This document shows positions 2,661 through 49,799 of a DNA stretch of 64,000 nt, piece by piece (positions within the stretch are counted from its first letter, which is position 1; every line of letters starts with the position of its first letter). The notes below the pieces were generated by a model, which searched no databases, had not been told where the DNA came from, and saw only the letters and a list, made by a program, of their open reading frames with translations. Source of the stretch: Octopus vulgaris (Eukaryota); NCBI GenBank assembly GCA_951406725.2, contig OX597822.1, positions 83,824,001-83,888,000 on the forward strand, in the 5' to 3' direction. The position numbers and the translations under genes are program-made.

Positions 2661-3005
2661 GCATATGTGTAGAAGTTTTAGATGGACATATATGCAAGTT
2701 AGTGTGAGTTTAGCAATATTACTGGTTTTCAGACTTGAAAATGATTTCCTCAATGTTAATAATAAATGAATTAGCTTAAAGACACATCTATGTACACATA
2801 AAAGACATAAAAAACATACAGGACATACAAGAATAACGTGACATACAAGACGTACAAGAATAACAAGACAAACAAGACGCACACAGACACACTGACGCGC
2901 GCACACTGCCCCACCCACTACACACACGTACATACATACACATACATGTTAGCACTATCTTAATGACTGATAACAGAGAACAACAGAATGATTACAGCAG
3001 AGGAC

Positions 3006-3054
3006 AGAACCAAATCATCGATGATTTTGCATTTTAATGCTCATCAGTGGCTCC
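3006..3054 (-). ncRNA. Type I hammerhead ribozyme motif (G12A variant)
   Basis: Reverse complement reads GGAGCCA-CUGAUGA-GCAUU aa AAUGC-AAAA-UCAUCGAUGA-UU-UGGUUCU; stems I, II and III all pair. Confidence 0.75.
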
Positions 3055-3354
3055 CACCGCGCCTAGGGTTAAACGCAGCTCGCCTGACCAGGGAACTATA
3101 CCGGTTCAAGACAAACTCTACAGACACGGAAGCACTGTCAGGCGGACCTGTCCGAGATGTGCACAGGGCCATGAAACCGTCCTGCATGCATTTGTCCAGT
3201 GTCCCTGCATTTCTGACTTGTGAGGATTTGTCGAACAGCTTTTGTTTCGTGTAGGACAAACACGGTTATCAGCTGATTAGATTATCAGCGGATTATATAT
3301 ATATAAACTCAGCTCGCCTGGTCAGGCGAGCTGCGTTTGGCCCTAGGTGCGGTG

Positions 3355-3403
3355 GGAGCCACTGATGAGCATTAAAATGCAAAATCATCGATGATCTGGT
3401 TCT
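3355..3403 (+). ncRNA. Type I hammerhead ribozyme motif (G12A variant)
   Basis: GGAGCCA(3355-61) CTGATGA(3362-68) GCATT-AA-AATGC AAAA TCATCGATGA TC TGGTTCT(3397-3403); stem III is the palindrome ATCATCGATGAT. Confidence 0.78.
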
Positions 3404-3449
3404 GTCCTCTGCTGTAATCATTCTGTCATCCTGTTATATATATATATAT

Positions 3450-3725
3450 AATCCGCTGATAATCTAATCAGCTGATAACCGTTGTTCGACAAATCCCCAG
3501 AAGTCAGTAATGCAGGGACACTGGACAAATACATACTGGACGGTTTCATGACCCTGTGCACATCTCAGACAGGTCTGCCTGACAGTGCTTCCGTGTCTGT
3601 AGAGTTTGTCTTGAACCGGTATAGTTCCCCGGTAGTACTGTTAAGCCAGGGATTTCTGGAAGTTAGCCATTGGCCCTGTCTTGAATGCCTTCCGGAAAAG
3701 AACAGTTAATTGAACCCTCCCGATG
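3450..3725 (-). pseudogene. Tx1/L1-clade ORF2 C-terminal zinc-finger (zf-RVT) fragment; inverted copy at 3091-3290
   Basis: Minus frame LFRKAFKTGPMANFQKSLA*QYYRGTIPVQDKLYRHG...; the plus copy reads TCPRCAQGHETVLHAFVQCP, the C-x2-C...ET..H....C motif of L1/Tx1 ORF2. Confidence 0.75.
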
Positions 3726-4342
3726 CCCTGCTTGTTATTCATACACCTGTTTTCGTCTTTTATTTTTCTGTAAATTTTAACTCTCAATGATACTAAATCT
3801 CAATTATACTAAAACCCTAGGGATGTTTGTGTGTAACTGAAATATCTCAGAAATTATATATTATTTTATCTTTTTTTACATATTTATTTTCATACTTACC
3901 TTCGGCAGTACAGTACATATTTTTGTGACATTTGGACCTCTTGTTAAACGATTAAACAATTATTGCTTGCTATTTCTTGGCGAAAAGAAACATGGCTTTC
4001 GTGACGTTTACACACATACAGAATACACATACATATAATGAATGTCATAGCTTTCAATCAACACAAACATACGTCAGCTATCTGTGACATATACACACAC
4101 ATAGTCTTCGCGCTCTTTAAGAAAATGAAGTCGACATTTTGACGTACACAATACTTTAATCGTTTAGAAATATACTTTACTCATGTAATTGATTACCATT
4201 GTTTCGATAGTTCTAATTAAATAAGTCCAAAAGTTAGGTTAAATATGTATATATGCTTAAATACTGTAAATTCCCATTCTACAGAATGGCAAACAATTCC
4301 ACGAATACTTTACCGGGCAAGGGTGGGTAGTAAGCCTAGTGT

Positions 4343-10793: not shown

Positions 10794-10981
10794 TACATAT
10801 ATATATATGTATATATATATATATACACACACACACACATATATATATTTATATATAGATATAATATACATACATGTATATGGGTGTATGCGTGTACGTA
10901 TTTGTATGTGTGTGTGTGTGTGTATCAGTTTGGTTAAGTACCTGCGCAACGATATATATTTTAATTAGTGAACAATTAATT

Positions 10982-11583
10982 AGGCGGCGAGCTGGCAGAA
11001 ACATTAGCACGCCGGGCGAAATTCTTAGCAGTATTTCATCTGCCGTTACGTTCTGAGTTCAAATTCCGCCGAGGTCGACTTTGCCTTTCATCCTTTCGGG
11101 GTCGATTAAATAAGAACCAGTTACGCACTGGGGTCGATATAATCGATTTAATCCGTTTGTCTGTCCTTGTTTGTCCTCTCTGTGTTTATCCCCTTGTTGA
11201 TAGTATAGAAATAGGTATTTCTTCTGCCGTTACGTTCTGTGTTCAAATTCCGCCGAGGTTGACTTTGCCTTTCATCCTTTCGGGGTCGATAAATTAAGTA
11301 CCAGTTACGCACTGGAGTCAATGTAATCGACTTAATCCCTTTGTCTGTCCTCTCTATGTTTAGCCCCTTGTGGGCAATAAAAGAAGAAAGGAACATTCGC
11401 ACTCCGTGCGAAATATTTAGCAGCAGTATTTCATTTGACTTTACATTCTGAGTTCAAATTCTTCCGATGTCGACTTTGCCTTTCATCCTTTCGGGGTCGA
11501 TAAATTAAGTACCAGTTGCGTACTGGGATCGATCTAACCTCTCCCCCAAAAATTCGGGCCCTCTGCCTCGAGTAGAAAAGAAT
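10982..11583 (+). mobile_element. SINE family A dimer plus adjacent partial third unit
   Basis: Three successive B box-core units with family A head at 10982. Confidence 0.88.
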
Positions 11584-23800: not shown

Positions 23801-23955
23801 GGGAAAGTTTACGAAAAAAACAAAAGACGAAGACAGGTGGTGTACAAAACAAACAGGTGTATTAGTATAACGCTCAGGAATAGAAAAAGTCTTTTACGTT
23901 TCGAGCCTACGCTCTTCTACAGAAAGGTACACAGAAAAAGCAAGGAGAAAAAATA

Positions 23956-27657: not shown

Positions 27658-28000
27658 ATTTTTGTATTCTTTTATATGTTTCGGCCTTGAGGTTGCAGCC
27701 ATGCTGGGGCACCGCCAGTGTAATCACCTTTTAATTGGCAAATTCTATGAGACTGGCTTTTCGTGAAGGGAGTTCGATACCGCTGCCTTCTTTTGAGTTC
27801 CCGGCCTTGATATTGGTTTGTCTGGGATCTTGAATAACAAGTGGTCAAGTTGTTTCTTGAAAACATCTACTCCCACTCCATGGAGATCCCTCAGATGTTT
27901 TGGCAAGGAGTTAAATAGTTGTGAGCCCTTAAATCCCGAGGTATTGCAGTACATGTTCCTCGCCTTAGATGAGACATCTGGGACTTTTGGAATAGTGCAG
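27658..28000 (-). mobile_element. CR1/L2-group LINE 3' end (ORF2 C-terminus and 3' UTR)
   Basis: GFKGSQLFNSLPKHLRDLHGVGVDVFKKQLDHLLFKIPDKP...SNSL, then tail GGCGGTGCCCCAGCATGGCTGCAACC...GAAACATATAAAAGAATA. Confidence 0.85.
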
Positions 28001-28058
28001 TGACACACACACACACATACACACACATATATACACACACACATACACACACATATAT

Positions 28059-28127
<69 letters not shown>

Positions 28128-28239
28128 CACACAAGCACACATACACACAGACACACATACATGTATGCTTGTATGTCGGGATGTATAAATGTATGCATGA
28201 ACGTGTTTGTGCATCTGTGTGTATCTACATATATTTTGA

Positions 28240-28500
28240 ACTAAATCTGGCGAATAGGGTATGTACAGAAGCGATACCACATTGTTTTGGATGTGGAACT
28301 CACGAGTGAGGAGGGCTCGGTGGCAGGGTACATGATCGCTATGAAGAATCCAATTCGTCGCACTCCACCGATCCGGTCTCTTTCGCCGAATGCCCTCCCG
28401 CAAACGCTTCAAAACGTCGCAGTATAACTCTCGATTGACAGCCTGGCCCTGGGGGACGAAATCTTGATGCACAATGCCACATTTGCAAAGTAAACACAGC
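28240..28500 (-). pseudogene. Mariner transposase catalytic-domain fragment
   Basis: GIVHQDFVPQGQAVNRELYCDVLKRLREGIRRKRP...WILHSD..PCH...PYSPDL. Confidence 0.85.
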
Positions 28501-29408
28501 AATATTATTCGTACACTGCTTGATGAAGGTCACTGCAAGCCCTCACTGCGCACGCAACCGTGTGTTGCCATCTGCTGACGCGCTATATAACTAGTCCACA
28601 AACCACCTCAAGATATACAAATTTTAACCGTTATCGGTTTCTTAAAATACAGATATTTCTTGTCAATATTCTTTTGAAATTATTTCTGAAGTATCGAGTT
28701 TGATAAGACATGATTTAGATATTTTTAAACCATTTCCCGAACACTCAACGGAAATAGACTTTTGTTCCATTTATTGCAGTAAATATTTATAGAATGATTC
28801 CACATGAATATGGGTTAGAGATCATTGTCTAGGTTCAAAAATATTCGTTTGTGAAGAATTACCTGAAAAACAAAAGCGAAAAACGAAAAATGAAATTGTG
28901 TTGAGAGAAAATTCATCCTGCAAAACAATTATTTCAATTTCATTTATGATATATATAAATAAATGAGACTTCAGTACTAAAATAGTCCGTGTCCAAATAT
29001 GAGGGACAATCTGGATTAATGTACAGCATCAACAATAAATATATTTATAGCACAACTGAAAACGTTACTTGGATGATACACTGTTTCAACCAAGTTAATG
29101 AGTTCAAAAATTTCATTTATAATCTAAACAATATACTTCAATATAAATGAAGTACATTAAAAAAGGACCTTCTTGCTTGAACAAAGTTGTTATTAAAAGA
29201 GACACGGACAGCAAAACAGAAACCTACATCAAACTATGAAATTTAATTCCTGAAAAATTGTTCTTCTAATCCAAAATGAATCTAAGGTTAATGAAGGTAA
29301 ATAACTTCAAACATCAAAATATAACAGGAAAGAGAATAATCAGCAACATTAATCGATAACGGAACAGACCGTGCCAAACCGACCGATTATTCAGTAGCTG
29401 CAATGTCA

Positions 29409-29555: not shown

Positions 29556-30230
29556 TGAGAAAGTTGGTGTGTGAAAGCACGTGGTTGAATATATAGAAAA
29601 TAGTAAAAAGTGAAAAAACTACAGAAGACTTGTTTTAAAAGGTTAAAAAATATATATTTGAGTCATTATGTCAGAAGAATGTTATAAATTTTTTTCATAC
29701 AGTGACATAGTTTTTGAAGAAATTACCGGTTTCGTGTTAACTTTTCAAATTTCTCAAAACATCGTGTTATGACTTCGTTATGAAGTGTAAAGAAGATTTC
29801 CAGGTAAGGGGAGGTAATAAGTGATTTCTTCCGGTGTAAGGGAGATAATCGCTTTATATTTCTTGCCTTTTTTACTTAATGGGGTGAGTTTCTCTGTATA
29901 AGAATGTTAGAGTGGTTGAGTTTGGGCTTATATTTTTCAATGAAGAATGTTTCCTTGTTTAGTCTAATTTGTGTTGGTGTTCCAATAGCACATTGATAAA
30001 ATGGAAAGATTAAAAATTGTGGTAGTAGTTGCTTTGCGCATTTCTCAATACGCTCACTAAAGGGTATCATTCTGTATTCTGGGAATGCAATCTGTTGGCG
30101 ATGCAGTGTGCATCTACGTCTGAGTGATAGTCCCGTGGACCCCACGTAGTTTTGGTGGCAGCCCGAGCATCTTATGACATAAATTTTTTCAGAAGCACAA
30201 GTAATTTTGATTTGATCTTGAATTTTTGTA
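29553..30230 (-). mobile_element. Penelope-like element 3' fragment: GIY-YIG endonuclease and pLTR with degenerate HHR
   Basis: ITCASEKIYVIRCSGCHQNYVGSTGLSLRRRCTLHRQQI...RLNKETFFIEKYKPKLN; HHR-like motif at 29710-29760 (UUGAAAA..GAAA-CCGG-UA with a long stem I); TA tracts on both sides. Confidence 0.85.
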
Positions 30231-30339
30231 CATATATCTACATATATGCACACATATATTTATATATACATATATATATGTATACGTATATGTAAATGTA
30301 TATATATAATTATATATACATATATACAGTTATATATAC

Positions 30340-31802: not shown

Positions 31803-33047
31803 CGAGGGACGTTAAATAAGTAATGCCTCTGACCCACTTGCAGTTGTTTGATGTAGCTGAAATTTTGCCTGTGCAATTATTTATATCTCTATAGATTACG
31901 TGGCGAATTACAGCTCTGAACTAATTGTGGTTTTTGATTTACAAGTGTTTGAACTGAGTCAAATATGAAATGGAGCCTGTTGAGTGTCGAGCAGTGATCC
32001 GGTTTTTGTATTTGAAAGGACGCACACCACGGGAGACTTTTGATGAAATGAGAGTAACTTATGGTGATAATGCTTCATCATATGACCTTGTAAAACGCTG
32101 GCATCGTGAATTCAAACATGGTCGGAACTCTGTGGAAACAGCCCCCAGATCTGGTCGCCTCCCAACTGCCATTGATGAGGCATCTGTCCATCAAGTTGAA
32201 GCTGCCATTTTGGAAGATCAACGCATAACTATTTGCCAAATAGCCCATGAGGTCAAGATTAGTACCGGGTCTGTGGAAACTATCATTCATGACCATTTGC
32301 ATATGCAAAAGGTGTCTGCCAGATGGATTCCCAGGTTGCTCACGCCTTTCCAGAAGCAAGAACGCGTCGAGTGCTCGAGGATGAATTTGGAGATGTGCCA
32401 AAAGATGAGTCAAAATTTTTCAAAAGACTGATTACACAGGATGAAACCTGGATCCATCACTATGATCTAGTGACCAAAGCCCAGTCAATGCAGTGGAAGC
32501 ACCGTGACTCACCTCCTCCAAAGAAAGCAAGGGTGCAGCCCTCCGCTGGCATGGTCATACTCACAGTCTTCTGGGACCAGGACGGAGTAGTGATGACAGA
32601 TTTCCTGGCAAATGTTACCACAATTACAGGAGCCTATTATGCTTCACTTTTGAGAAATTAAGAGAAGCTATCAAAATCAAGAGGTGGGGCAAGATCAGCA
32701 AAGGCATCCTCCTCCTGCAGGACCCTCAGAAGCGCAGGTGTGCGACTATGAACGCCTCCCCCATCCTCCTACTCTTCTGACCTTGCACCTCTTCCCAGCC
32801 ATGAAGTTGTTTTTGAAAGGAAAGCGTTTCCCAGATGATGCAGCCTTGATTTCTGAAGTCACGTCGTGGCTGGAGGACCAAGCTGGGGTCTTCTAGAAAA
32901 ACAGTCTCCAGGGCTGCATCAAACGATGGGAGAAATGCATAACTCTGGGTGGTTCCTATGTATAAAAAGACTAATAACTGTGCCAAGTTTCGTTACTCTA
33001 CTGCTATGCGAAGTGGGTCAGGGGCATTACTTATTGAACGCCCCTTG
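31803..33047 (+). mobile_element. Near full-length mariner transposon with TIRs and TA TSD
   Basis: TA-CGAGGGACGTTAAATAAGTAATGCCTCTGACCCACTT ... AAGTGGGTCAGGGGCATTACTTATTGAACGCCCCTTG-TA. Confidence 0.95.
31970..32975 (+). pseudogene. Mariner transposase, frameshifted and with deletions
   Basis: CRAVIRFL HTH, VSARWIPRLLT, ITQDETWIHHYD, VFWDQDGV, KRWEKCI; frameshift near 32400, deletions around the second Asp and the YSPDL motif, in-frame stops. Confidence 0.92.
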
Positions 33048-33475: not shown

Positions 33476-33923
33476 ATTTTCATGTCGCATGTTAATATGC
33501 AGTGCGTACATACATACAAATAAACATACATGCAGGCATACATATATACATATATTTGAGCGTGCGATTGTGTATGTGGGTGACATACAAATACAAAACC
33601 CGTCATACACAAGCAAGTATGACATGTTAGGTATAACACGCTTTCACTTACATTCTTAGATGCCTATTTAGTCACAAGCCGACAATGATACACATTCAGC
33701 TCTCATTCCCATGTTGGACAAGCAGAACATGTAGAATATGACAACTGTGCTGGAGTGAGTGATGCAGCTCATTTCGGCTAACAATGCTAGCATTAAGAGA
33801 AATTCTGTTCCTTGCTCAAAGAAACAATGCAATACCCGTTACAAGAATAGAACACAGCACCTTCTGATCGCAGACTAACCACATTAAGCATTAGAGCATA
33901 ATATATATTATAACTCTGGAGAT

Positions 33924-35357
33924 GTGAATACTATACTCCAGAGTATCCTGGACTCAATATGGGCAGCATGTGCAGCATCAGTGCCACGTAAACAAAAAAA
34001 GAAGAACCGCCCCAAAAGGGCAATTTGGGAAACTTCAGCGGTCCGACTTGCCAGGAGGGAACGTCGGACTGCTGAACGGGAATACAGGTTGCATAAATCA
34101 GACACCAACAGGAAGAAGCGGAATAAATCCTCCAACCATCTCAAGCAGGTGACAAAAAAGGCAGTGCTTGAATTTGAACAGTGCATAGCAGCCAATCCTG
34201 ACAGCAAGGTTTTCTGGAAATATGTGCACTCAAAGCAGAGACCTCACTCTCCAGTGGGCCCTCTTCGCAACCCTCACACAAACCAGATCACTGACGACCC
34301 CAAGGAATGCGCAGAACTCATTGCCGAGTGCTATGCAAACATATTCACTGTTGAAAGTCAAAATGTACCATCTTCACCATCACTAACAGCAAACTCCATA
34401 ACAACTATGGAATTTACACCTGCAATGCTGCGACGTCACCTTCAAAATAAGCGCAACTATGCCTCCCCTGGTCTCGATGGAGTTACATACCTGCTTCTCA
34501 AACGTGGCAGGCACTTCCTTTTACACCAGCTTTCTATTTTCTTCCAGTACTGTCTCAACAATGGTGCTACTCCGGAGCAGTGGAAAACTGCCAGTGTCAT
34601 TCCTCTGTTCAAAAAGGGCGACCGCACATCACCTGTCAACTATCGCCCAGTCAGTCTCACTAGCTGTATTGCAAAACTGATGGAATCGTGTGTCAGAGAA
34701 ACACTCTGGAACTTCTGGAGCTCTCACAGTCTCATCCGACCCTCACAATATGGATTTGTCCCTAACTCCAGCTGCAGTGACCAGCTTGTCGAGTTCCTTG
34801 AGGACATTACTCAGATTACTGACAGTGGCTCATGGGTGGATGTTGTCTACCTTGACTTTGCTAAGGCTTTCAACTCTGTGCCACACAAAAGGCTTATGGT
34901 GAAACTCTCTGCAATGGGTGTGGGGGATGACCTTTTTAACTGGTTGAAATCCTTCATCCTCAGCCGAAAGGAGGTAGTCACAGTTCTAGGACAGCACTCT
35001 ACACCATATGAGATGTCATCGGGTGTACCACAGGGATCTGTCCTTGGTCCCCTCTTGTTTGTGGCATACATTAACGACATAGATGCCAATTTAAAGAATG
35101 CCACAGTATTGAAATATGCAGACGACATCAAGCTGTACCTTGAAATCAAGAGGACAGATCCTGATGTCTACAACTCTTTCCTGCAATCAGACGTGAACAA
35201 AAAAAGAAGAACCGCCCCAAAAGGGCAATTTGGGAAACTTCAGCGGTCCGACTTGCCAGGAGGGAACGTCGGACTGCTGAACGGGAATACAGGTTGCATA
35301 AATCAGACACCAACAGGAAGAAGCGGAATAAATCCTCCAACCATCTCAAGCAGGTGA
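33924..35357 (+). CDS. CR1 ORF2 RT fragment (first duplicate copy, runs out of frame at the duplication junction)
   Basis: Stop-free 477-aa ORF with RT motifs up to YADD. Confidence 0.8.
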   Translation: MNTILQSILDSIWAACAASVPRKQKKKNRPKRAIWETSAVRLARRERRTAEREYRLHKSDTNRKKRNKSSNHLKQVTKKAVLEFEQCIAANPDSKVFWKYVHSKQRPHSPVGPLRNPHTNQITDDPKECAELIAECYANIFTVESQNVPSSPSLTANSITTMEFTPAMLRRHLQNKRNYASPGLDGVTYLLLKRGRHFLLHQLSIFFQYCLNNGATPEQWKTASVIPLFKKGDRTSPVNYRPVSLTSCIAKLMESCVRETLWNFWSSHSLIRPSQYGFVPNSSCSDQLVEFLEDITQITDSGSWVDVVYLDFAKAFNSVPHKRLMVKLSAMGVGDDLFNWLKSFILSRKEVVTVLGQHSTPYEMSSGVPQGSVLGPLLFVAYINDIDANLKNATVLKYADDIKLYLEIKRTDPDVYNSFLQSDVNKKRRTAPKGQFGKLQRSDLPGGNVGLLNGNTGCINQTPTGRSGINPPTISSR

Positions 35358-36395
35358 CAAAAAAGGCAGTGCTTGAATTTGAACAGTGCATAGCAGCCAA
35401 TCCTGACAGCAAGGTTTTCTGGAAATATGTGCACTCAAAGCAGAGACCTCACTCTCCAGTGGGCCCTCTTCGCCACCCTCACACAAACCAGATCACTGAC
35501 GACCCCAAGGAATGCGCAGAACTCATTGCCGAGTGCTATGCAAACATATTCACTGTTGAAAGTCAAAATGTACCATCTTCACCATCACTAACAGCAAACT
35601 CCATAACAACTATGGAATTTACACCTGCAATGCTGCGACGTCACCTTCAAAATAAGCGCAACTATGCCTCCCCTGGTCTCGATGGAGTTACATACCTGCT
35701 TCTCAAACGTGGCAGGCACTTCCTTTTACACCAGCTTTCTATTTTCTTCCAGTACTGTCTCAACAATGGTGCTACTCCGGAGCAGTGGAAAACTGCCAGT
35801 GTCATTCCTCTGTTCAAAAAGGGCGACCGCACATCACCTGTCAACTATCGCCCAGTCAGTCTCACTAGCTGTATTGCAAAACTGATGGAATCGTGTGTCA
35901 GAGAAACACTCTGGAACTTCTGGAGCTCTCACAGTCTCATCCGACCCTCACAATATGGATTTGTCCCTAACTCCAGCTGCAGTGACCAGCTTGTCGAGTT
36001 CCTTGAGGACATTACTCAGATTACTGACAGTGGCTCATGGGTGGATGTTGTCTACCTTGACTTTGCTAAGGCTTTCAACTCTGTGCCACACAAAAGGCTT
36101 ATGGTGAAACTCTCTGCAATGGGTGTGGGGGATGACCTTTTTAACTGGTTGAAATCCTTCATCCTCAGCCGAAAGGAGGTAGTCACAGTTCTAGGACAGC
36201 ACTCTACACCATATGAGATGTCATCGGGTGTACCACAGGGATCTGTCCTTGGTCCCCTCTTGTTTGTGGCATACATTAACGACATAGATGCCAATTTAAA
36301 GAATGCCACAGTATTGAAATATGCAGACGACATCAAGCTGTACCTTGAAATCAAGAGGACAGATCCTGATGTCTACAACTCTTTCCTGCAATCAG
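33986..36395 (+). repeat. 1205-bp tandem duplication (33986-35190 / 35191-36395)
   Basis: Constant 1205 offset; only two differences seen (33990/35195 and 34269/35474); AC microhomology at the junction. Confidence 0.95.
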
Positions 36396-37131
36396 ACCTA
36401 GACACAATGCAGCAATGGATCACAGACTGGCAACTGAAACTGGCTGTGGACAAGTGTACCACCATGCATTTTGGGAGAAAAACCCTGCGTTCACATACTC
36501 CCTCCACAACACTGATATCAAGAAATCCTCTTGTGAGCGTGACCTAGGCATCACTGTCAGCAGTGATTTGCGTTGGTCAAAGCATATCTCTAAGATTGTC
36601 AGGAAGGCCGAGGGTGTCTTGGCATCACTCAGCAGGTCTTTTGTTAGCCGCTCTCCAGCCATCTATTTAAAACTGTATACAGCTATGGTACGACCACACT
36701 TGGAATTCGCATCATCAGTTTGGAACCCCTATCTTGCACAGAACATTGACCTCCTGGAATCTGTCCAGAGACGTGCAACCAAACGCATACCCTCCATCAG
36801 ACACCTACCATATTCTGAGCGCCTTGTTTCCCTGGGCATGGATTCACTGAAGCTCCGGCGTTTGGCGACGGACTTGGTAAACACCCACAAAGTTATCAAC
36901 CACCTCACCAACAACAACACTGAACACCTTTTTGATCTCCATGTGTCTAACACACGTGGACATGCCTACAAAGTCAGAAAACAATACAGCTCCCATGACT
37001 TTCGGAAACATTTTTTCACGCTCAGAGTTGCTGAAGCATGGAATAAACTGCCTGCGTCAGTTGTTGACTGCCATGACACTGCATCTTTTAAGGCCCTCAT
37101 GCTTTCCGAAATCCGCCGAAACTACACCTGA
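35294..37131 (+). pseudogene. CR1 ORF2 RT and C-terminus (second copy), single -1 frameshift in the A-run near 36480
   Basis: ORFs 35294-36547 and 36415-37131 join as GRKNPAFTY if one A is added. Confidence 0.85.
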
Positions 37132-41069: not shown

Positions 41070-41480
41070 GGGCGGTGAGATGGCAGAAACGTTAGCACGC
41101 CTGGCGAAATGCGTAGCCGTATTTCGTCTGTCGATCCGTTCCGAGTTCAAATTCCGCCGAGGTCGACTTTGCCTTTCATCCTTTCGGGGTCGCTAAATTA
41201 AGTACCAGTGATACACTGAGGTCGATATAATCGACTTAATCCGTTTGTCTGTCCTTGTTTGTCCCCTCTGTGTTTAGCCCCTTGTGGGTAATAAAGAAAT
41301 AGGTATTTCGTCTGCCGTTACGTTCTGAGTTCAAATTCCGCCGAGGTCGACTTTGCCTTTCATCCTTTCGGGGTCGATTAAGTACCAGTTATACACTGAG
41401 GTCGATATAATCGACTTAATCCCTTTGTCTGACCTTGTTTGTCCCCTCTGTGTTTAGCCCCTTGTGGGTAATAAAGAAAT
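41070..41480 (+). mobile_element. SINE family A dimer
   Basis: Same two-unit architecture as 618-1032. Confidence 0.92.
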
Positions 41481-41800
41481 ATATATATGGTATGTGTGTG
41501 TGGGTAAACACGCACGGCACACACACACACATGCATGCATACTATAATATACTTAGTATGCGAGGCTCCGATGAAGATATCAGTTGTTACTCAGGCACAT
41601 TTGCATAGCAGAAACAGCTCTAAGCTAATGCAGTTCATAAGACAATCGTTTATTCCTCTGTCATATCAATTTCTTAATGTACAGCTCCGTTTCGTAACGC
41701 GTGTATATTTGAGTTTTAACACCAGCTTATTAAGTATCACTAATGGCCCAGGGAACAGTTTAAAACACATACATGCATCTATCCAGCCATCCATGCATGC

Positions 41801-44979: not shown

Positions 44980-45135
44980 CATTCTCTATTTATTTCCTCA
45001 TATTCCTTTCTGTTAAAGAACGTAGGCTCGAAATGTAAAAGACTTATTTAATTTTTCCTGAGCGTCAAACTAATACACTTACTTGTTGTTCCTACACCCG
45101 TTTTCGTCTTTTGTTTTTCTACAAGTCTGAACTAT
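44980..45135 (+). mobile_element. PLE-type pLTR remnant, degenerate HHR-like motif at 45006-45041
   Basis: CTTT-CTGTTAAA-GAACGTAGGCTC-GAAA-TGTA-AAAG; homologous to 23800-23957. Confidence 0.55.
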
Positions 45136-45164
45136 ATACATACATACATACATATATATATATT

Positions 45165-47719: not shown

Positions 47720-49189
47720 GTTCGTATGCTTCTATACAGCTAGTGATATAAGTCGATGAGACCCTGATTTTTACATTTTATTTTCGTATTTTTCACAATT
47801 TTACAATATTACATACTGTGATATAGCAAGTAGTTTCATGCCTTCTGAAATGTTCAGATTTATATAGTAGCAGTATTTAAAAGACAGTTATGTTTCGCAG
47901 TTGATAACTAATGTGGAGTGCTTGAAGTTATCCTTTAAATACTTTCCAGTACGCTCTGGCAAGCTGTATTTTACCAACTGTACTTTGCACCAACCAAATA
48001 GTTATACAAACAATCTACACCAGGTTCTGCTTGATAAGGCTTTAAATAACATGTTAATCATAGCTTTTGTATTCTCCACATTGGGCGACTTCCAGTAAAG
48101 GCAGTTAATAAACGATTGCATTATGATTTCCATTGAATTTTACTTCCCTGTTTTTCGTTTACGCTTAACTGCACTGGAATATTGAACATTTCGAACCAGT
48201 TGTTATAGTCGATCTTAAAATATAAAATCACTCACAGGAAATTAGGTGTCAATCATTAGAGCAACCAAATGTATATTATATTAAATGTTTCTAGATAAAC
48301 TGTAAAGTACAACATATTTGTTAGTGTGATAGTGTTTAATAACCAAACGGTACATATGTTGGTCTCATCTCAATTAATGACATATTTTTGCACAGCAACC
48401 ATTTAAATAAACAGATATATTTTCTTCATAGCAGCCCAAATCGCACGAAATATATACATCTTTCTTAGTGATCGTAATTCATAGAAAGAATCGTGATGTC
48501 ATTTTCGGAAGATTAATATAGAAAATACTAAAGACCTTTCTTTACTTGACATGAACAGAAGTAAATTTTAGTTTCTCTTATTTGCTTTTGCATTATGTGC
48601 AGACTCACTCATACAAATGGTTTAAAATATTATAGAAAAATGTGTGTACATATGTAAAACTACATTTTCTTATTTGAATTGTTCATATTCTTTTTCTTTT
48701 GTCTATGTATTATGTAACGCATTTCTGAATGAAATAGATTCCGCTTAAAAAGACAACGAGAAAAATATTCTTTCAGTGTATACTCTCTTAATAACTCCAA
48801 TTATGAAATAAGACTATTCACTTCTTATTGTCATTGAGCTTTCTTATAAAAGTGTTATATGCGTTAACAAATTGGAGTACATTTTATTTCCTTAAAACGT
48901 GAAAATCTACAACGACGCCAGATAATTTTATCTCCTCTCAAATAGAATAGATTTGTTCGTTTAATAATTCGATCTGTGTTAAACACGGACAGTGCAGTAG
49001 AATTTCCAGACCCTAACTGAAAGAAATCCAAATCTACTTGGAAAGGTTAATGTTCAGTTTCAACCTATTGGAACTCAATTGTTAAGAACAGAATGATGAT
49101 TGGGGGCGTAGGAGGGAATGCAGTAAAATATGGAGGAATGAAATATATGTGGAGGACATTATTTAGCTTTTTAACATATAAACCAGATC

Positions 49190-49591
49190 AAGGTGGCGAG
49201 CTGGCAAAAACGTTAATACACCTGCGAAAGGCTTAGCGGTATTACGTCTACCGCTACGATCTGAGTTCAAATTCCGCCGAGGTCGACTTTGCCTGTCATC
49301 CTTTCGGGGTCGATAAATTAAGTACCAGTGAAACACTGGGGTCGATATAATCGACTTAATCCGTTTGTGTGTCCTTGTTTGTCCTCTCTGTGTTTAGCCC
49401 CTTGTGGGTAGTAAAGAAATAGGTATTTCGTCTGTCTTTACGTTCTGGGTTCAAATTCCGCCGTGGTCGACTTTGCCTTGCATCGTTTCGGGCTCAATAA
49501 ATTAAGTACCAGTTACGTAATGGGGTCGATCTAATCGACTGCCCCCCTCCCCCAAAAAATTTTGGGCCTTGTGCCTAGAGAAGAAAAGAAT
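49190..49591 (+). mobile_element. SINE family A dimer with two different tails
   Basis: First unit ends GCCCCTTGTGGGTAGTAAAGAAATA; second ends GGGCCTTGTGCCTAGAGAAGAAAAGAA. Confidence 0.9.
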
Positions 49592-49799
49592 ATATGCACC
49601 AGACCAGGAAATATTATATTACTGTAACTTATTTTGTAGACTCGCAGAATGACGGAAAGTCAATTCATCGGCGATGTTGCAGAAACTTGAAGATGACTTA
49701 TTAAACAGCAGAAGAATATTGATCAACCACACTGCTGCTCTTGTCTCTTAATAGCGATACGATATCTGAATATTATTGATATACATATTAATGCTATTA

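Follow-up and report, generated by a model that had tools for sequence, protein, structure and literature searches.

An inverted arrangement of two decayed retroelements was found near the start of the window, the 64,000-nt stretch of Octopus vulgaris DNA that was analysed. The locus is likely an ordinary, locally derived rearrangement rather than a new circular-RNA element. One of its parts, segment A, is a predicted Penelope-like (PLE) pLTR fragment that carries a hammerhead fold, and the other is a relic of an L1 ORF2. We see about an even chance that the arrangement was produced by one DNA template switch of replication or repair at a palindrome, after A had inserted into the L1. The outside evidence consists of contigs of four public DNA-type sequencing runs (X2, X3, X8 and X16) and of protein relatives.

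Layout of the inverted arrangement

Comparison of the sequence with itself gives the order A-B-C followed by A'-C'-B' along 2970-3633, the order that had been claimed in the original prediction. A (2970-3092) pairs with an inverted copy at 3317-3437, with 4 substitutions in 110 nt over 2983-3092, and B+C (3087-3305) pairs with an inverted copy at 3439-3633, with mismatches at 10 of 151 positions in B and at 0 of 44 in C. Between the arms, 14 of 305 aligned bases differ (4.6%; 11 transitions and 3 transversions), the right arm has a 24-nt deletion relative to the left, and small indels are located at the end of A. The unevenness of the divergence between B (10/151) and A+C (4/154) is not significant (p=0.11), and speaks neither for nor against gene conversion. 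The window carries GG at 3339-3340, which makes up ~12 of a depth of 77.5 in X2 and is absent in X3, X8 and X16; since it is this rare in the runs, two of the four differences in A look like a recent allele.

The arms meet at a hairpin with 11 perfect pairs (3310-3333; DNA fold z of −3.9, matched by 0 of 200 shuffles), as predicted, and the pairing extends to a near-perfect palindrome at 3305-3338 (15 of 16 pairs, 2-nt centre) that forms the 5' end of A. The left arm of this palindrome repeats the end of the left A, and the two units are therefore not the exact circular permutations that had been proposed, although their order is permuted.

Below, the locus is divided into blocks a (the original A), h (an 11-nt palindrome arm), t (a (TA)n run) and c, b and d (pieces of the L1), with primes for inverted copies. 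The original, hammerhead-bearing copy of A (2970-3092, minus strand) is PLE pLTR-like and sits at the same end in the X16 contig described below. It is followed by the first new junction at 3087-3092 (plus strand; switch 1 to 2), at which the end of a meets the inverted end of b. This junction shows 5/6 identity to each side, in agreement with the claimed join at a CC(C/T)GGT microhomology. The inverted copy of b, c and t (3093-3305, plus strand) reads the L1 zf-RVT region in sense to ~3289, retains the 24 nt deleted on the right and ends in (TA)n at 3294-3305. The inverted 11-nt spacer h, which is the palindrome arm (3306-3316, minus strand), is the sole single-copy block. The inverted copy of A (3317-3437, plus strand) leads to the second new junction at 3434-3437 (plus strand; switch 3 to 4), where the 3' boundary of A meets (TA)n via TTAT. 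The resident (TA)n run, t, is seen in the sequence at 3435-3450, and the resident L1/Tx1 ORF2 relic with its zf-RVT region (c, b and d) occupies 3451-3727 on the minus strand, with the 24-nt deletion at 3481/3482. Beyond it, a second repeat family of very high copy number is represented by its 3' part (3727-3782, plus strand). This flank is shared with the X16 contig and has a depth of 14,000-102,000 in the bin 3745-3799 and loose ends of (TA)n.

Support from sequencing runs

The contigs of run X2 hold 2700-3043 with 5 differences and 3439-3606 with 0 differences, the 24-nt deletion included. Contigs break at 3043 and 3606 in X2 and at 3043 in X8, 30 nt beyond the last arm-specific base, which fits the presence of both arms in these two runs. 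Of 83 sampled words, a fraction of 0.78 is present in run X1, possibly the source of the window itself; a single-copy form could contain 0.62-0.69 (P ~0.02 at the bound). The joints 3028-3368, 3116-3609 and 3146-3632 in X2, X3 and X8 were left out as ambiguous because paralogues match piecewise on either arm.

Staggered breaks are an origin of inversions flanked by duplications. Here, breaks or other end joining, in which h would be inverted and both overhangs filled in, and an assembly artefact are together improbable as the source of the arrangement. Such inversions are a recognised class, described as dupINVdup (PMC5338099), and none among the contigs listed for the four runs bridges either of the new junctions or the full arrangement. 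However, staggered breaks would require overhangs of 123 and 213 nt held by 11 bp. An artefact would be expected to give identical arms, whereas the arms differ by the 11 transitions and 3 transversions and the deletion recurs letter for letter in X2; an assembly artefact is therefore unlikely.

Insertion of segment A into an L1/Tx1 relic

B+C had been read as Tx1/L1 zf-RVT sequence, and the Pfam zf-RVT domain (PF13966) is indeed found above its cut-off of 27.5 bits in both copies, at 35.0 and 31.8 bits. The L1 fragment, which we take to be of the Tx1 type, has 41 protein relatives, the top ones 44-64% identical. The long cluster members among them carry Exo_endo_phos, RVT_1 and zf-RVT, and two named relatives are Argonauta hians proteins. 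The protein-homologue search at longer lengths returned one candidate, which was non-significant.

Homology to L1 past 3633 is present in the right copy only, where it extends to 3727, and this part of the claim that the L1 is resident there was confirmed. The frame is not confined to that side, as it resumes left of A with the peptide SVIKIVL (2970-2950, minus strand), at which the relatives read S-I-[VI]-K-I-V-[SP]. Under a profile made from 20 of 28 aligned relatives (8 were dropped for gaps), this site is among the top 2 of the 127,960 six-frame 7-mers of the window. The L1 frame on both sides of A indicates that A is an insertion into the L1, in the same sense. The relic thus spans the minus strand from 3727 to ~2950, interrupted by A.

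A belongs to a dispersed multi-copy family, with 48-67 contigs per run that vary at 3054 in all four runs. We take A to be a putative fragment of a Penelope-like pLTR, its membership being tentative because it has no linked RT ORF. Hammerheads of this type and opposite-strand pairs of them are described for PLE pLTRs (PMC4209133; review PMC6765202), and recently active Penelope families are described in Octopus vulgaris (PMC13282606). An exact motif search of the PMC8557442 supplement gave no matching element for A. The 30-40 bp tail at one end, a trait of PLE pLTRs, was not seen, the extra bases left of A being L1. For the same reason 2950-2969 was rejected as a candidate PLE tail, and no other copies are shown aligned there.

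Several further features were observed around the insertion site. Extra contigs of X2, X3 and X8 over the 3' end of A (2983-2991) share two letters with the X16 contig, and one or two further loci may carry either the composite of A in L1 or a closely related subfamily of A. The likeness of 2956-2974 to 3465-3482, which was equalled in 79 of 5000 shuffles, is a possible decayed target-site duplication. Likewise, three decayed copies of a 16-nt word lie where A inserted: a tandem pair on the side of the L1 (3266-3297) and a single copy left of A (2956-2972). A target-site duplication with slippage is possible for these.

A single-copy form in a related organism

A 590-nt contig of run X16 (related organism E; depth 9.6) aligns with 3441-3728, continues through the second repeat at 3727, and joins 3092 to 3441 via 11 letters that agree with 3306-3316, read on the opposite strand, at 10 of 11 positions. 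These letters include the diagnostic mismatch of the palindrome arm. The contig therefore reads a-h-t-c-b-d: A and the L1 piece occur once each, and the hairpin is that of the window with its centre the opposite way round. Against the window it shows 28 mismatches in 288 positions (9.7%) and 41 gap letters, and the arms are closer to each other (14/305) than X16 is to the window (Fisher p=0.016). This suggests that the single-copy form is likely ancestral, with both orthology and polarity likely. Judged by the same contig, the central hairpin is older than the duplication.

This precursor is one contig in one of the four runs, and X16 is without cover at 2751, 2913 and 2952 in the unique left flank. 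Its letters at 2990-2991 depart from this locus and agree with the additional contigs of X2, X3 and X8, which are probably paralogous; the X16 contig may thus be orthologous to a paralogue of the locus. The X16 depth of 28.7 at 3428 is unexplained.

The contig bears on the timing of the event. The original prediction had offered a local origin by a template switch at CC(C/T)GGT next to a resident L1, which stands, but the second of its two alternatives had placed the copying in the course of the PLE insertion. This was probably mistimed, because X16 has a hairpin-bearing single-copy insertion that is more diverged than the arms (p=0.016). If the whole structure had instead come from the original PLE insertion, with the target flank copied inverted and a jump back to the element, the X16 form would have been simplified later by an inversion between the A copies and then a deletion between direct repeats. 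We regard this as unlikely. The window does resemble the described layout of an inverted pLTR, a direct pLTR, a body and a pLTR with captured DNA (PMC3846280), and paired opposite-strand PLE hammerheads are described 100-700 bp apart (PMC4209133), compared with 315 bp here. However, the X16 lineage would need two more events and the arms would have to have been homogenised, given 4.6% between the arms and 9.7% to X16, and a route by deletion only is disfavoured by the X16 11-mer, which equals h at 10 of 11 letters.

A degenerate hammerhead and the circular-RNA reading

Both copies of A have a type I hammerhead fold with a 6-bp stem I, CUGAUGA, a 4-bp stem II and a palindromic stem III. In the original copy CUGAUGA lies at 3047-3041 and position 17 at 3013; in the inverted copy the fold occupies 3356-3402, with CUGAUGA at 3362-3368 and a predicted cut after 3396. 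The claim that A holds a hammerhead is thus upheld as to the fold, but core position 12 is A instead of the catalytic G12 in both copies (3028 and 3381) and support from Rfam is weak: there were no gathering-level matches in the window, and the HH9 scores of the two hammerheads are only 16.7 and 13.7 bits. The fold energy is −8.7 and the fold is not the MFE (−12.1). A hammerhead descriptor relaxed for A12 finds just these two sites in the window, compared with 1 match in 100 shuffles and none in 74 control loci. The scan of metagenomes gave no match to a 29-letter A pattern. The 17-letter core had 74 matches there, which are the control loci just mentioned; none of them passes the hammerhead descriptor, and the best one lies within a bacterial ORF, indicating that these are chance matches. 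No description of this locus or of this hammerhead family was found in titles and abstract openings, within a limited coverage of the literature.

The change G12A slowed the hammerheads described in PMC2553840 by 500-fold to about a million-fold. The ribozyme is thus predicted to be nearly inactive and, as its cut site is also not a junction, to have played no part in the rearrangement.

This bears directly on the proposal that a hammerhead read-through RNA was circularised and reinserted, as the birth of a retrozyme-like unit, which we now consider very improbable. A unit of 320-350 nt with one type I hammerhead is within the monomer sizes described for non-LTR retrozymes (PMC7229834), and the left arm alone resembles a circle opened at (TA)n. 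However, the junction lies ~80 nt upstream of where the hammerhead would cut, neither new junction lies at the cut, and G12 is missing from both copies. In addition, the copies are inverted, not tandem, with one hammerhead per sense, whereas retrozymes are described as tandem units with complete ribozymes (PMC7229834; bioRxiv 10.64898/2026.07.22.740005). At the locus, we found no head-to-tail tandem units, no intact core and no circle junction at the cleavage site. The contiguous 347-nt block in the X16 order accounts for the layout without a circle, while a circle of A'C'B' leaves the inverted h unexplained.

A proposed template switch at the palindrome

The preferred explanation is the switch of a DNA template during replication or repair. 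When A inserted into the L1, a fold-back palindrome and (TA)n would have come to lie on the 5' side of A, in the order a-h-t-c-b-d; the order itself is that of the one X16 contig. The polymerase would then have stopped at the palindrome apex at 3092 and resumed on the opposite strand 224 nt further on, primed by a 5/6 match. From there b, c, t, h and a would have been copied backwards over 347 nt, before a return at TTAT in (TA)n that skipped h. The product would be a-b'-c'-t'-h'-a'-t-c-b, which is the observed "permuted" layout, and afterwards the arms would have diverged by 4.6% and the right arm would have lost 24 nt.

As a matter of geometry, bookkeeping with slices of the window gives the window order when a contiguous 347-nt a-h-t-c-b is inverted in place of h, and the order of switch points on a precursor of the X16 type is 3,1,4,2. 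We therefore infer that the copied piece was likely 347 nt without any permutation, and that the apparent permutation is likely a by-product of the switch. Both new junctions have microidentity (5/6 at 3087-3092 and TTAT at 3434-3437), the palindrome arm beside (TA)n is delimited precisely by switch points 1 and 4, and going left from switch 1 a TAT is first met at 2972, the boundary between A and the L1. For these reasons we favour a switch during replication or repair, with the palindrome and (TA)n as the probable trigger. On the other hand, the 3-1-4-2 type makes up 1% of events, and the 347-nt tract is long for catalogued short-range switches, with a median of 12 and a maximum of 128 (PMC7954356). 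It also counts against a DNA switch that point 3 is the 3' boundary of A and that the landing site is (TA)n, as a PLE RT would give both.

An RT could indeed have made the same product. In this possible though less probable course of events, an L1-sense read-in RNA (b'-c'-t'-h'-A) would be bound at the 3' end of A by a PLE RT acting in trans, and 347 nt would be inserted inverted by target-primed reverse transcription into (TA)n beside the 5' end of the source, with a 5' microhomology join and the loss of 11 bp of target. The product is identical to that of the DNA switch, and current data do not separate the two. The start of the copy coincides with the 3' boundary of A and its landing site is (TA)n; A and the L1 have the same sense, which makes a read-in RNA plausible. 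PLEs are described to favour (TA)n or AT-rich targets and to make adjacent inverted 5' copies (PMC8557442); microhomology joins at the 5' end and the transport of host DNA in trans are described for them as well (PMC3846280). The account in PMC11167929 has uncleaved RNA as the main in vitro substrate, an RNP that may nick its own pLTR, and AT-rich insertion. However, the landing would have to be 11 bp or less from the source, and the position of the first TAT on offer accounts for the return point as well. We found no cognate RT and no second example, nor any RNA run with the sequence among the 24 listed runs, which has no bearing on expression. The full claim that a dead, non-coding hammerhead pLTR relic was re-inserted head-to-head in its own flank by a PLE RT in trans on read-in RNA, long after its first insertion, is one that we hold a shade more tentatively still.

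Other repeats in the window

The window as a whole is AT-rich, microsatellite-dense and full of repeat relics. A 1207-nt tandem duplication of 99.8% identity at 33986-36397 falls in the RT frame of a LINE (ORFs 33888-35357 and 35165-36547, each with Pfam RVT_1), and is either very recent or an assembly overlap error. The second abundant repeat occurs at 23801-23945 (minus strand) and 45007-45145 (plus strand) as well as at 3727-3782 (plus strand), and ends in (TA)n. It contains a minimal hammerhead-like motif with the core CUGUAGA as compared with CUGANGA, whose fold z of 0.42 is non-significant, and this putative element is likely another PLE pLTR. A GIY-YIG-like frame at 29879-30256 (minus strand; PF01541 at 19.6 bits, below the cut-off of 22.6) is likely a PLE endonuclease relic, with no link to A seen. 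Relics of Mariner-type transposases (HTH_48, Transposase_1) are located at 31958-32661 (plus strand) and 27894-28529 (minus strand). An abundant short repeat, presumably SINE-like, is found at 76-298, 619-1034, 10979-11583, 41071-41495, 49187-49596 and other sites, often with internal partial tandems of ~180 nt.

Implications

As a single decayed locus, the arrangement carries little weight. Its A-B-C / A'-C'-B' layout looks like a reinserted circle and yet follows from one template switch; since one switch suffices, such layouts are not evidence for circular intermediates unless a precursor is at hand. If the copy was instead made by an RT, the locus would show how PLE inverted repeats and flank capture originate, which is unresolved according to the cited PLE papers. 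With a secondary reinsertion of this kind, PLE inverted repeats could grow later and carry upstream host DNA, and the locus would be a dated before-and-after pair. Transcription of the locus, if it occurs, would give an RNA that folds into a long double-stranded hairpin.

Comparison with known systems

The L1 part shares its zf-RVT match with the ORF2 of L1/Tx1-type LINEs (APE, RT and zf-RVT), and is here just a broken fragment of ~100 codons. The locus also resembles the animal non-LTR retrozymes described in PMC7229834 and bioRxiv 10.64898/2026.07.22.740005, in having a type I hammerhead within an ORF-less, low-GC unit that is a few hundred bases long.

A is similar to PLE pLTRs in its type I hammerhead with a short palindromic helix III, with G12 changed. 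Like the PLE insertions described in PMC3846280, PMC8557442 and PMC4209133, it has a 5' palindrome (~34 bp, compared with 18 and 38 bp in Adineta) and (TA)n, and the window shares with them the head-to-head inverted copies with host DNA between the repeats. In contrast to these insertions, A has no linked RT or GIY-YIG ORF and no visible tail, the captured DNA comes from the flank next to it, and the long inverted copy seems younger than the insertion.

By its class name, the arrangement is like dupINVdup, an inversion with duplications on both sides, but it is far smaller than those described in PMC5338099, with an 11-bp core and duplications of 123 and ~213 bp. It is also like the four-point switch of the 3-1-4-2 type described by Loytynoja and Goldman (10.1101/038380), where a single local switch, followed by a return, leaves an inverted spacer flanked by a pair of inverted repeats. 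It differs in that the tract is 347 nt, compared with a maximum of 128 in the ape set, and that the breakpoints lie on the edges of a retroelement relic. The structural feature common to the 3-1-4-2 and dupINVdup types is nevertheless present here, with a/a' and tcb/b'c't' placed around h'.
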